A DNA stretch of 64,000 nucleotides from Candidatus Babeliales bacterium (lineage in GTDB: Bacteria; Babelota; Babeliae; Babelales; JBFXEV01): NCBI GenBank assembly GCA_050179755.1, contig JBFXEV010000001.1:1225994-1289993 (forward strand), written 5' to 3'. Every line of letters starts with the position of its first letter. Position 1 is the first letter of the stretch. Below the pieces are notes generated by a model, which saw only the letters and a list, made by a program, of their open reading frames with translations, ran no database searches and was not told the origin of the DNA. A program made the translations under genes and the position numbers. Below are positions 1-63,076 of this stretch, in pieces.

Positions 1-860
1 TTTGCATGAACAATCATTTCTCGAGCAAATAGATCAACCCCATTTTTTATGCCAGTATATGATTGTGCTGCCATGTGAAACGGCGAAGATCCAACACCAA
101 TATCATTTTTGATACGGCGAGGGTGATGATAAATTTCATATTCTGAATTATCTCTTTGGTCCTCTTGTGTGAGCGTTTCAAGATTAGCGCCACCATCGAG
201 CAATAGAGAAAGTGTAGTTGTGTCCCAATCAGTATCTAATGCATAATGTATAGGGGCTCTGCCAGTGTACGCAATTGTATTGAGCGGCACTCCGTGTGCA
301 ATTAATAATTTTAATGCTTCATGTGCTCTAAAATAGGCTGAAAGATGGCAACCGGTGATGTGGGGTGTGCCCATTAGGTTGGCATGTGAGCGAACTAGTT
401 CTTGCAGTGCATCTACATTATTATAAGATGCTGCATATTCAACCGGAGCTTTGCCATATGCATCGCGGTGGCTTGCATTTGCTTTAAATTCAAGTAAGAG
501 TGCGACTAGTGCTTTTTGCGATACACCAATTCTTTCAAAATCGGTAGGAGACGTGTCACATACTTCAATAAGAGCCGTGCGATTTTCCGCAAACGGTGCA
601 TCAACCTCTGCACCTTGCTCTAATAAATTGCGCAGTGTACTAACACTCTCATATGCATAATGTTGAGAGTACCCGTTACGGCTAAGAACATCTTGACGTA
701 AGAGCCGCACTACAGCAGAAGTAAACATCTTGTTGCGTTCTTCCTGTTTTATTGCTTGTTCATCTGATTCAAGCATATGGTCCATGGCCTGCATATTTGT
801 AGAACCTGTTAAGAGGAATAAAGGAGCAAGGAGAAAAATGCTATTTAATAAATAACGCAT
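1..860 (-). CDS. Ankyrin-repeat protein with signal peptide (partial; runs off the left edge; not in ORF track)
   Basis: Read manually from ATG at 860: MRYLLNSIFLLAPLFLLTGSTNMQAMDHM...LLEQGAEVDAPFAENRTALIE... (ankyrin-like); start overlaps the stop of the 845..2149 gene by 16 nt. Confidence 0.85.
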   Translation of the reverse strand, partial: MRYLLNSIFLLAPLFLLTGSTNMQAMDHMLESDEQAIKQEERNKMFTSAVVRLLRQDVLSRNGYSQHYAYESVSTLRNLLEQGAEVDAPFAENRTALIEVCDTSPTDFERIGVSQKALVALLLEFKANASHRDAYGKAPVEYAASYNNVDALQELVRSHANLMGTPHITGCHLSAYFRAHEALKLLIAHGVPLNTIAYTGRAPIHYALDTDWDTTTLSLLLDGGANLETLTQEDQRDNSEYEIYHHPRRIKNDIGVGSSPFHMAAQSYTGIKNGVDLFAREMIVHA

Positions 861-2149
861 GATTCTTTTACTTTGTCAGCATATAATTGAATAGTTGTTT
901 TTATGTTAGGCATCCATGCAGATGGTGCATCTTGTTCCAAGTTACCATAATACCCGGCTTTTAGCACATTCCAATTTGAAAGGCCATCAAGGTTATTAGT
1001 GCGAACTGCTTCTATAAATTGTTGTAAATGTTCATCATACATTGTATAGAGTAGGAGAGTATGTGATGAATTATTTTTGCTCTGTGCTTTGGCAAAGCAT
1101 TCACATTTATATGCAGTACTACCGCGTTCATTTTCAGCAGCAACTATTGTTTTTAGAAATGCCAGTCGTGTGGCTAGTAACTTATACGCTAATGGAAACA
1201 TTTTATTCTTTGAAGCTAAGACACAGACCAATACTGTTGGTGAAAAATGCTTGACTAAGTACGGTATGAGTGGTTCCATAATGCCATTGTGCAGATCTTT
1301 AGAATGAACTATTCGGTTTAAGCAACATAAAAAAGTAAGCATTCCTTTGTTGGTAATTGGTTTGCGGCCAGGAAAAAATAATGCATGATGCAAAAGAACG
1401 CGTTGAAGTGCTTGTGAATTCTTTGTTGGTTGTGCCACAAGATGAAAAACGGTAGAACCAGCTAGAATTAAAGTTGATGCGGTAGCATCTACTATTTCTG
1501 TAGTGCTTGTATCAAGCCTCGCTCCATGTGTTAACAGCACTGCAGCAGCTTTAGGTTTTTCCAAGTACACTGCAAGATGAAGTGGTGACATGCCAGATCG
1601 TTCAAGGCAATTCATATCTGCTCCAGCATTGCCAAGCCAAGTAATACACCTTACGCAGTTGTTATTCGCTGCTTTATGACACGGAGTCCAATCACGGTAA
1701 TTTCGTGCATTAAGATCACCCTGTGCATTTTTAAGTAATTCAAGAGCATGAACACGATCATACTGTGCTGCATAGTGTATGGGTGTTTGCTGTGAGTTAT
1801 CTCTAGCGTTAGGATCGGCTCCGTGCGCAAGTAATATGGCAACTAAGTCATCTTTGCCATGAGAAGGAACCTGCCGCGGATCTTTGAAATAACTTAATTT
1901 GGGATTATCATTCCTGGAGTTTGCAATAATAACAGCGTGCAATGCAGCCTGCCCCAGCTCATTTCGAGCATTCACTTGTGCACCTTGGTTTAAACACTGA
2001 GTAACTCCATTTACGTCGTTTAAAGAAGCATAAGTAATAAGACTTTCATTGAGTTGAGTTTGTTTTACGGGATCAATTTCTTTAGCCATTGCTTGTGCAT
2101 TGCTCGAGCTTAACGTACAGATTAGCCATAGTATTAACAAATCACGCAT
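845..2149 (-). CDS. Secreted ankyrin-repeat protein, C-terminus CVIY
   Basis: Ankyrin motifs GQAALHAV, QTPIHYAA, WTPCHKAA, MSPLHLAV; signal peptide ..AQA|M. Confidence 0.9.
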   Translation of the reverse strand: MRDLLILWLICTLSSSNAQAMAKEIDPVKQTQLNESLITYASLNDVNGVTQCLNQGAQVNARNELGQAALHAVIIANSRNDNPKLSYFKDPRQVPSHGKDDLVAILLAHGADPNARDNSQQTPIHYAAQYDRVHALELLKNAQGDLNARNYRDWTPCHKAANNNCVRCITWLGNAGADMNCLERSGMSPLHLAVYLEKPKAAAVLLTHGARLDTSTTEIVDATASTLILAGSTVFHLVAQPTKNSQALQRVLLHHALFFPGRKPITNKGMLTFLCCLNRIVHSKDLHNGIMEPLIPYLVKHFSPTVLVCVLASKNKMFPLAYKLLATRLAFLKTIVAAENERGSTAYKCECFAKAQSKNNSSHTLLLYTMYDEHLQQFIEAVRTNNLDGLSNWNVLKAGYYGNLEQDAPSAWMPNIKTTIQLYADKVKESCVIY

Positions 2150-61850: not shown

Positions 61851-61873
61851 ACATTCATTTTAAAAGGGATATT

Positions 61874-63076
61874 ATGTACAACGTTGCTTTTTTTCTTGTA
61901 TGCACCGCATATAGCTCCTTCTCATATGCTATGGTGCAGCAAGCACCACCGCAACCATTTAATGCGCCTATTGAAGTATCTATGGGCCATACTGTGCGCT
62001 TACGCGGCGGTGCTACTCCACTTTCTATTTTAGAATCTGAGCGGGTAGCCAAAATACAAGACCCACGCAAAAATTTAAAAAAATGCCTGAGAACAAGCGA
62101 GCGCGCGTTAAAGCATCGTGCTATTAATGCAATAGAGCAAGACGCAACAAGTGAGCTTTCTGATTATTTAAATTCATGGACTAGCTGGGTGCTTCCCTGG
62201 GACTATTATCATGAGGAAGTGGCTCTCTTACTTACCCATGCTGCACAAAAGCCTCACGCACAAACAGAAAACTGCTTAGCACTTTTACTGCAAAAGGTTC
62301 GCGTGCAAGATCTACCGCAACCTGATTGCTTATTAAAAAATGCATTAGATAATAAGCATGTGCCCCTAACAGCCTATTTATATAAACATTTTCCTGAAAT
62401 TGCACGCTGGGAACTTATAGATGCAATAACTCATCAACAAGATGCTCATCTTACTACATTGCTCCAGGCTGGCGTTGACCCAAATGTTGGCGTGGGCCCG
62501 CATGAAAAAGAGGTTATTGCGGTTGAAGAGAGCGGCGAAGTTGCTTTGCATCATGGCATACAATATCCATTACATATGGCTGCATATCGTGCTCACTATA
62601 ATGCGGTGGGGATTCTTTTAGAACATGGTGCAAGCGCAACGCTACGCACACGCGTTGATAATTATAGCCCATTTGATATTGCCATACGAGGTTTTGAAAA
62701 ATTAGATTCTGTTACTGGTCCCGATACAGAAGATACACAGCAAGCTCGGCTTTTTGTAATACGCATGCTTCTTAACGCTTTACCAGATCACGAAGTACCT
62801 TGCCTTGCCTATACGCGAGCAAGAATTACAAAACTACCTAATAAGTTGCAAACTAAAATTTTACAAGTGGTGCAAGAAAGGCTTATGCCACGACCATGCA
62901 TAATGAGCGACGATGCTCCCCGTAACGCACACTTAGAGCAATCTAATGAATACTGCTTTGGTTTTACACTCATGGGTTGCGCATGGGCCTTAGGACTTGC
63001 AGCAAGTCTTTACACAAACCGTGAAGGCTTAATTGATGAGTGGGAAAAATCGAAAATGAACAAAAAAAGTGAGTAA
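61874..63076 (+). CDS. Secreted ankyrin protein with C-terminal TM (paralogue of 60591)
   Basis: ..SYA|MV; LLQAGVDPN, YPLHMAA..LLEHGASA; C-terminal hydrophobic segment and basic tail. Confidence 0.82.
   Translation: MYNVAFFLVCTAYSSFSYAMVQQAPPQPFNAPIEVSMGHTVRLRGGATPLSILESERVAKIQDPRKNLKKCLRTSERALKHRAINAIEQDATSELSDYLNSWTSWVLPWDYYHEEVALLLTHAAQKPHAQTENCLALLLQKVRVQDLPQPDCLLKNALDNKHVPLTAYLYKHFPEIARWELIDAITHQQDAHLTTLLQAGVDPNVGVGPHEKEVIAVEESGEVALHHGIQYPLHMAAYRAHYNAVGILLEHGASATLRTRVDNYSPFDIAIRGFEKLDSVTGPDTEDTQQARLFVIRMLLNALPDHEVPCLAYTRARITKLPNKLQTKILQVVQERLMPRPCIMSDDAPRNAHLEQSNEYCFGFTLMGCAWALGLAASLYTNREGLIDEWEKSKMNKKSE

Follow-up and report, generated by a model that had tools for sequence, protein, structure and literature searches.

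Methionine at position +1 of predicted signal peptides: a class-specific junction rule in a Babeliales genome

Why do the predicted signal peptides of so many proteins in a Babeliales bacterium end immediately before a methionine? The question is raised by a stretch of 64,000 nucleotides from a Candidatus Babeliales bacterium (contig JBFXEV010000001.1, positions 1,225,994 to 1,289,993; hereafter the window), in which an earlier note had listed 22 genes with a Sec-type signal peptide directly followed by Met and had proposed that this residue marks putative host-targeted effectors. The window belongs to a genome, G000, that consists of one contig of 1,525,295 bases with 39% G+C. The 22 junctions stand: every coordinate coincides with a gene start, and the translations show Met exactly where it was claimed. 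All 22 leaders have a basic n-region and a hydrophobic core, and the residue at position -1 is small apart from one Pro and one Thr. Five exported proteins that had been named as lacking the Met also read as described (Table 1).

The observation is confirmed, and it is far larger than the window. Signal peptides were called among the 1411-1412 open reading frames (ORFs) of at least 80 aa in G000 with our own heuristic, which combines a hydrophobic 9-mer, a non-negative n-region and the best -3/-1 site and is blind to position +1; all cleavage sites, in every genome, are predictions from sequence by this same caller. Met occupies +1 in 127 of 620 calls (20.5%), as compared with 2.0% of residues in bulk protein (binomial p = 1e-85), and for no other residue at +1 does the ratio to bulk exceed 1.4. 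At the remaining offsets from -10 to +13, Met is found 0 to 43 times in the 620 calls, leaving a sharp spike at +1 alone; raised counts at +3, +4 and +6 come from sites that the caller placed a few residues early. The 127 proteins with Met exactly at the called +1 form the strict Met class. A broad class, with Met within a few residues of the crude site, comprises 231 of 1412 ORFs, including 104 "shifted" sites, part of them false. The comparison sample holds 60 genomes of the phylum, all in one order, and comparisons between genomes rest on small samples of relatives that are not independent. In four of these genomes with few or no ankyrin (ANK) matches, the caller finds Met at +1 in 0 of 31 (G013), 0 of 12 (G003), 0 of 17 (G017) and, as one doubtful case, 1 of 10 calls (G004). 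The excess is therefore not made by the method.

The junction motif is [A/G]|M-[D/E/Q/N/K], where the bar marks the predicted cut. In the 127 strict members, the -1 residue is mostly A (93, or 73%) and otherwise G (16), C (10), S (7) or T (1), and the commonest +2 residues are E (36), D (30), Q (13), K (12), N (6) and H (6). Position -3 is L, V, A, S, I or T, the small residues at -1 and -3 being partly imposed by the caller; -2 is mostly Y, L, H, C or F, and from +3 to +8 the residues P, S, Q, K and T are frequent. The leaders otherwise resemble classical Sec/signal peptidase I leaders in n-region charge, core, length (about 22) and small -3/-1 residues, and the peptidase LepB is present. The classical description, however, is not known to include either a Met that is all but fixed at +1 or a +2 residue that is non-small and mostly acidic, and under the same caller a Met at +1 with an acidic +2 is nearly absent from related genomes. 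Leader length among the 127 has its mode at 20-22. Because Met and non-Met leaders of G000 have mean lengths of 22.0 and 22.1 and the same hydrophobicity and charge, the only mark that separates the two classes is +1/+2. An invariant +1 residue is also a property of lipoproteins, in which +2 decides the destination, and of type IV prepilins, but the junctions fit neither: lipoprotein sites (signal peptidase II) are contradicted by Met with no Cys at +1 and by the -2 residues just given, and prepilin sites by a -1 residue that is Ala in 73% and not Gly and by a hydrophobic core that lies before the cut, not after it.

The earlier note had taken the signal peptides to be real and the inner Met not to be the true start, and this is borne out. 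A Shine-Dalgarno (SD) match of at least 4 bases precedes the first start in 59% of the 127 genes, whereas one precedes the inner ATG in 4 of 127 (3%), as compared with 7% for random internal ATGs. Translation includes the leader, and the Met is internal, not initiating. A more elaborate proposal would make the inner ATG a second initiation site, yielding exported and cytoplasmic forms with the same mature sequence. The conserved codon is indeed ATG and coincides exactly with the mature N-terminus, and SD-independent initiation may exist, since about 40-50% of genes have no recognisable SD motif. However, the SD counts oppose such a dual start, as do several further results. GTG and TTG, used by 35 of 371 SD-backed starts, show no enrichment at +1 (6 of 32 Val codons, 11 of 66 Leu codons), and a V or L at +1 is not followed by D/E. 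The native cytoplasmic N-termini of the genome are M-K, M-A and M-S, with M-E at 4.2% and M-D at 1.3% (n = 237), unlike the M-E and M-D of the junctions. Finally, a search for markers of type III and type IV secretion, by which a cytoplasmic form could leave the cell, gave none (type VI was not searched for). Dual initiation is thus very improbable. A Kozak-like reading at the nucleotide level (GCN ATG G) was rejected as well, as A, G and V at +2 would fit it equally and yet are depleted. For annotation, the inner ATG invites wrong start calls that conceal the signal peptide.

The rule is class-specific. Pfam families were assigned in a stricter set of 290 signal-bearing proteins, from which 19 that straddled 20-kb tiles were dropped, so that 65 proteins with Met at +1 and 206 others were scanned. 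With shifted sites included, the Met is carried by 32 of 41 proteins with ANK, WD40 or TPR repeats (21 strict), by 63 of 160 proteins without a family (orphans; 41 strict) and by 9 of 70 members of other named families. Three of the last are strict (Exo_endo_phos, Peptidase_S41 and thioredoxin), and several of the six shifted ones look false. Repeat proteins differ from named families with p = 5e-12 by Fisher test (1e-8 for strict calls), although the E-value cut-offs were unequal (1e-6, 1e-8 and 1e-10) and weak matches in the non-Met set may be undercounted; the expected enrichment of effector-type over ordinary exported proteins is thus seen. The non-Met set contains envelope housekeeping proteins such as BamA, OmpA, OmpH and TamB, together with a Legionella_OMP-type porin, M23, Amidase_3, SpoIID and solute-binding proteins, and also M16, M48, M49 and C11 peptidases and leader-bearing glycosyltransferases and GNATs. 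The mature part of the 127 strict members has no membrane segment in 104 cases and one in 23, and none is polytopic. For ankyrin proteins the earlier note had gone further, stating that all 13 in the window follow the rule. All ANK proteins of the window do so, but Pfam finds 12 rather than 13 among the 60 ORFs scanned there (E <= 1e-3), the remaining Met genes having no Pfam family; over the whole genome 25 of 33 signal-bearing ANK proteins comply, and eight elsewhere in the genome lack the Met.

Orthologues provide a further test of the junction. In 400 kb of G001, a genome of the same genus, 281 reciprocal best hits have a median identity of 68.5%. The 34 ortholog pairs with Met at +1 in G000 are identical in 68% at -1, in 74% (25 of 34) at +1 and in 65% at +2, while most flanking positions reach 21-35%. 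Against a flank rate of 30% the conservation of Met gives a binomial p of 2e-7, and several of the nine non-conserved cases are alignment slips in which the ortholog still reads A|M. No identity peak occurs at the junction of 85 other signal-peptide ortholog pairs. The Met and both of its neighbours are under purifying selection. Nor is the rule the inheritance of one family, because the 231 broad Met-class mature sequences fall into 156 BLAST clusters, 142 of them singletons, the largest being an ANK cluster of 53. These results bear on the possibility that the Met is a historical relic, a functionless old start codon left behind when leaders were added ahead of complete genes. Glycosyltransferases and GNAT enzymes that bear leaders in G000 show that such additions are conceivable, but these and other leader-bearing enzymes lack the Met, conservation so far above that of the flanks is not expected of a neutral relic, and the +2 spectrum is unlike the native starts of G000; the relic is scarcely credible. 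Deep conservation was considered and rejected: homologues of the Exo_endo_phos member occur in 6 of 60 other genomes, and in no case does Met directly follow a small -1 residue, although in two it comes one residue later (T|EM, A|EM).

Across the order the rule is patchy: it is pronounced in this genus and occurs in several families, while other families lack it. Met is at +1 in 64 of 186 calls in G001, 9 of 47 in G019, 5 of 35 in G016, 5 of 48 in G011, 4 of 10 in G029 (paralogues) and 1-2 of 8 in G064; G060 has 2 strict and 5 shifted cases among 16 calls, often with a small +2. The counts are 3 of 47 in G056, 1 of 7 in G007, 0-1 of 16 in G005, 0 of 6 in G053 and 0 of 3 in G018. An apparent 5 of 23 in G055 includes none that is genuine by eye, the Met lying inside the c-region (S-M-Y-A|A). 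In G056, small exported ANK proteins (about 120-300 aa) are encoded in a long array at C1:1380001-1420000, and their leaders have a stereotyped end, TNA|LPAA or TNA|IPAA, which is a different lineage-specific junction motif of a sister family.

What the rule could achieve is suggested by position +2. Methionine aminopeptidase accepts the small +2 residues A, C, G, P, S, T and V. Such residues follow the Met in 9 of 127 proteins (7%), as against 76 of 177 (43%) in non-Met signal peptides (p = 6e-13); D, E, N or Q follow in 85 of 127 (67%), hydrophobic residues in 9% and basic residues in 16.5%. The spectrum in G001 is the same (67% D/E/N/Q, 3% small). The set is chemically mixed and so reads as "not small, not hydrophobic", that is, as an avoidance rule and not as a receptor pocket. 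Several parts of the earlier interpretation survive: the leaders, the class association, the NatB-type share (M-D/E/N/Q at 67% of Met+1 junctions, as in an N-terminus that retains its Met) and the natively translated look of the N-terminus, with excision-permitting +2 residues six-fold depleted. The claim for all ankyrin proteins fails beyond the window, and related genomes rich in exported ANK proteins do without Met at +1.

The function that we favour, tentatively and at somewhat less than an even chance, is that the new N-terminus is inert in the host cytosol. The leaders would be ordinary Sec-type signal peptides, cut by signal peptidase I, with an extra lineage-specific rule, [A/G]|Met-[Asp/Glu/Gln/Asn/Lys], at the junctions of a presumed host-directed secretome of ankyrin, WD40 and orphan proteins. 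The rule would fix the identity of the N-terminus exposed by cleavage, and that N-terminus would be kept inert once the protein sits in the host cytosol. Met would be retained because +2 is almost never a small residue accepted by methionine aminopeptidase, and two thirds of the predicted N-termini, Met-Asp/Glu/Asn/Gln, would be of the type that eukaryotic cells make and acetylate themselves. A Met-hydrophobic N-terminus is an Arg/N-degron, and such N-termini are rare at these junctions. Effectors with an inert N-terminus would thus escape N-terminal trimming and N-degron turnover.

Five proteins have CaaX-like C-termini (CVIC in three, CVIY, and a polybasic KKRTKKCHIM), and all five are recorded as carrying a leader and then M-D/E (the CVIY protein reads M-A in Table 1). 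Prenylation is a reaction of the host cytosol, and these ends suggest, as side evidence, that Met-class proteins are exposed to it. Three of the five are the tandem ANK paralogues of window positions 1-3327 on the minus strand, and the other two lie at C1:277200 and C1:222205 of G000 and end in NCVIC and KKRTKKCHIM. As a general mark CaaX was rejected: in an automatic count, Cys is at -4 in only 3 of 231 Met-class proteins. There is some precedent. PMC2518864, drawing on studies of listeriolysin O and diphtheria toxin, shows that what becomes of a bacterial protein in the host cytosol depends in part on the residue that removal of the signal peptide exposes; PMC4378268 presumes that the signal-bearing ANK proteins of Babela reach the amoeba cytoplasm by secretion.

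A number of points weigh against an inert N-terminus as the purpose of the rule. N-degron avoidance does not explain Met specifically, because Ala, Ser and Gly stabilise equally. Eukaryotic N-terminal acetylation is mostly co-translational, so that an imported protein may never in fact receive the modification implied by "NatB mimicry". Met at +1 in G060 is often followed by T, G or V, which misfits Met retention. Within G000, the eight ANK proteins without Met, several of them small, break the rule from one side and the Exo_endo_phos, Peptidase_S41 and thioredoxin enzymes from the other, with distant homologues of one of these lacking the Met. Sister lineages rich in exported ANK proteins use other +1 residues (LHA|AD and LQA|AN in G053, TNA|LPAA in G056, A|QE in G055). 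Cleavage before the Met is itself predicted from heuristic sites, and the explanation does not account for the route of Met-class proteins over the outer membrane and any vacuole membrane.

The main rival is a sorting tag. The Met-acidic N-terminus could be read in the bacterial envelope, after Sec cleavage, as an address that routes proteins across the outer membrane by a secretin/type II-like machine or by vesicles, leaving the rest of the periplasmic proteins behind. A sorting signal would be expected to be class-specific, the leaders of the two classes differ at +1/+2 only, and N-terminal sorting near a cleavage site has analogues in Plasmodium PEXEL and in the +2 rule of lipoproteins. On the other hand, the signals for type II secretion are generally held to be conformational, and a +2 position that takes acidic, amide and basic residues is broad for a receptor. 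G000 has two tandem secretin genes (C1:499870-505052) and two T2SS-E ATPases, searches for VirB4 and FHIPEP gave no match in G000, and the main text of PMC4378268 reports type II as the only secretion system of Babela. However, every one of the 10 other Babeliales genomes tested has tandem secretins, whether or not it follows the rule. LepB has two PF10502 matches above cut-off in G000 (C1:1044179-1044904 and 1506819-1507550), but G011 and G029 have the rule with one copy. None of the secretion parts tested (LepB copy number, tandem secretins) co-varies with the rule, and a dedicated peptidase or secretin behind it was rejected on this ground. Sister lineages, moreover, export many ANK proteins without the rule. 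A sorting tag is therefore rather unlikely.

The closest documented parallel is the Q-rule of Bacteroidetes, in which Gln at +1 of signal peptidase I substrates is cyclised to pyroglutamate (PMC5837995; PMC10653852). As here, a lineage-specific single +1 residue is placed on classical Sec/signal peptidase I signal peptides and is likewise thought to act via the identity of the new N-terminus (PMC5837995). The Q-rule differs in its residue and in its reach, as it covers most signal peptidase I substrates, periplasmic ones included, while the Met rule marks an effector-type subset only and has a +2 component. It also has a modifying enzyme, glutaminyl cyclase, for which no counterpart is known in the Met rule. 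G000 does not itself follow the Q-rule, with Gln at +1 in 39 of 620 calls, 1.3 times bulk (the cyclase was not searched for), and the main text of PMC5837995 has no mention of methionine, TM6 or Dependentiae.

By analogy, the Met rule could be a matter of processing or protection in the envelope, with a Met-acidic N-terminus resisting the bacterium's own exported peptidases or suiting one LepB paralogue. PMC5837995 and PMC10653852 give the Q-rule as a documented phylum-specific +1 preference tied to stability and not to sorting, and G000 exports many peptidases, including M49, M16, C11 and S41 types, and has two LepB paralogues. The exemption of envelope proteins, in contrast to the breadth of the Q-rule, speaks against such protection; so do the free N-terminal Met, which is no chemical block, and LepB copy number, which does not follow the rule. 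Protection in the envelope is accordingly improbable.

Further likenesses lie in eukaryotic parasites. In Plasmodium (PEXEL/HT) and oomycetes (RxLR), a motif just behind an endoplasmic reticulum (ER)-type signal defines host-exported proteins, and what functions as the mark after cleavage is the new N-terminus, whose second residue is E/Q/D. The comparison is one of working principle and not of membership: those systems belong to eukaryotes and use a separate protease and an RxL motif, whereas here the signal peptidase site would itself bear the rule, and the junction strings show no R-x-L to the eye (they were not scanned for it systematically). It may nevertheless be that the [A/G]|Met-[Asp/Glu] junction is a bacterial counterpart of PEXEL, a two-part host-targeting code in which signal peptidase I itself makes a Met-acidic neo-N-terminus that admits some 130-230 proteins, or 9-16% of the proteome, to the host cytosol and lets them survive there; this extension, drawn by analogy, is possible but doubtful. 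N-end rule control in the host cytosol follows the same principle, that the exposed residue sets stability, but the cases in the part of PMC2518864 considered are single proteins, not proteome-wide, with no Met-acidic or Dependentiae link.

Within the same phylum, an ANK secretome like that of G000 has been described in Babela massiliensis (PMC4378268) and Chromulinavorax destructans (PMC6561590). Their main texts give signal peptides to 79 of 126 and to 78% of 98 ANK proteins, respectively, and to about 44% of coding sequences, with a Sec plus type II route; the word "methionine" does not occur in either main text (supplements not covered). No such rule was described in the literature on Dependentiae with signal peptides, methionine, signal peptidase or ankyrin, part of it titles and abstracts. 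The Met+1 junction rule is apparently undescribed, and what is added here comprises the tests on orthologues and on start codons, the association with protein class, the avoidance pattern at +2 and the patchiness across genomes.

The genes of the window are collected in Table 1. The tandem ANK genes of positions 1-3327 are closely packed, each gene start overlapping the end of the preceding gene by 16 bases. Among the contrast genes, the NADAR and M49 (DPP3-type) families are usually cytoplasmic, and the window copies bear leaders.

Table 1. Genes of the window with Met at +1 and exported contrast genes without it (positions in the window; SP, signal peptide)
Feature	Position	Strand	SP	Met+1 codon	Junction	Remark
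ANK gene	1..860	-	786-860	783-785	MQA|MD	runs off window; full-length C-terminus CVIC (genome copy)
ANK gene	845..2149	-	2090-2149	2087-2089	AQA|MA	C-terminus CVIY
ANK gene	2134..3327	-	3268-3327	3265-3267	AQA|ME	C-terminus CVIC
ANK gene	6875..7414	+	6875-6946	6947-6949	TLG|MD	TTG start
ANK gene	8359..10068	+	8359-8430	8431-8433	LHA|ME	
Short ORF	12485..12676	-	12617-12676	12614-12616	IHT|ME	only 63 aa
ANK gene	18047..19207	-	19151-19207	19148-19150	AWP|MD	
ANK gene	19270..20493	-	20413-20493	20410-20412	ALG|MH	
Orphan	23287..23721	+	23287-23361	23362-23364	LYA|ME	GTG start
ANK gene	23711..24589	+	23711-23773	23774-23776	VLC|MK	
Orphan	30007..31005	+	30007-30060	30061-30063	TWC|MD	hydrophobic C-terminal tail
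Small orphan	35662..36021	+	35662-35727	35728-35730	MHG|ML	
Small orphan	36045..36410	+	36045-36107	36108-36110	SLG|MM	
Small orphan	36407..36916	+	36407-36472	36473-36475	LYA|MQ	
Orphan	37765..38586	+	37765-37833	37834-37836	LHA|MK	
ANK gene	39686..40648	+	39686-39742	39743-39745	SHA|ME	
ANK gene	42428..43957	+	42428-42490	42491-42493	AHA|MK	
Orphan	47488..48333	-	48274-48333	48271-48273	SFG|MQ	
ANK gene	49053..49883	-	49815-49883	49812-49814	LYA|MD	
Orphan	59719..60444	-	60394-60444	60391-60393	LCA|MD	
Orphan	60591..61850	+	60591-60650	60651-60653	LYG|MQ	
Weak ANK gene	61874..63076	+	61874-61930	61931-61933	SYA|MV	
Exported GDPD enzyme	3682..4458	+			VFS|K	contrast, no Met+1
Exported M49 (DPP3-type) peptidase	4518..6707	-			AYS|K	contrast, no Met+1
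Exported alpha/beta hydrolase	28936..29844	+			IEA|I	contrast, no Met+1
Exported pyridine-nucleotide disulphide oxidoreductase	32254..33777	+			LHA|K	contrast, no Met+1
Exported NADAR-domain fusion	44063..46441	+			AIA|Q	contrast, no Met+1; 792 aa

The neighbouring plus-strand orphans at 30007-31005 and 31013-32284 have helical repeat motifs and a hydrophobic C-terminal tail in common and are probably paralogues; they differ at the junction, TWC|MD in the first and QYG|KP, with no Met at +1, in the second, and so form a natural test pair for the rule. The three consecutive orphans at 35662-36916 (plus strand, 119-169 aa), all with a leader, Met at +1 and similar mature starts, look like a tandem mini-family. 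For the orphan at 37765..38586, a search of 5.8 billion proteins returned no homologue except itself. The plus-strand ORFs at 10511-10969 and 11210-11695, neither with a Pfam family, are identical over about their first 127 residues and divergent thereafter, the product of a recent duplication in tandem that spans about 700 bases. Amid the effector-type genes lies a Fic/DOC-domain protein (Fic_N plus Fic; 12678-13817, minus strand) without a signal peptide. Met-class density peaks in the 100-kb bin of the window (33 of 94 ORFs at 1.2-1.3 Mb), and the class is scarce at 0-0.1 Mb (3 of 84 ORFs) and 0.3-0.4 Mb (5 of 90).

Dependentiae are a widespread phylum of protist parasites in which close to half of the genes have export signals. 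A simple sequence rule that splits ankyrin, WD40 and orphan proteins from envelope proteins supplies about 130 strict, and up to about 230 broad, effector candidates. It would be the second lineage-specific +1 rule in Sec substrates, after the Q-rule of Bacteroidetes, and it bears on whether N-terminal identity governs the fate of Sec-exported bacterial proteins in eukaryotic cells. If the PEXEL-like code is true, it would define the translocated effector set of the lineage from sequence alone.

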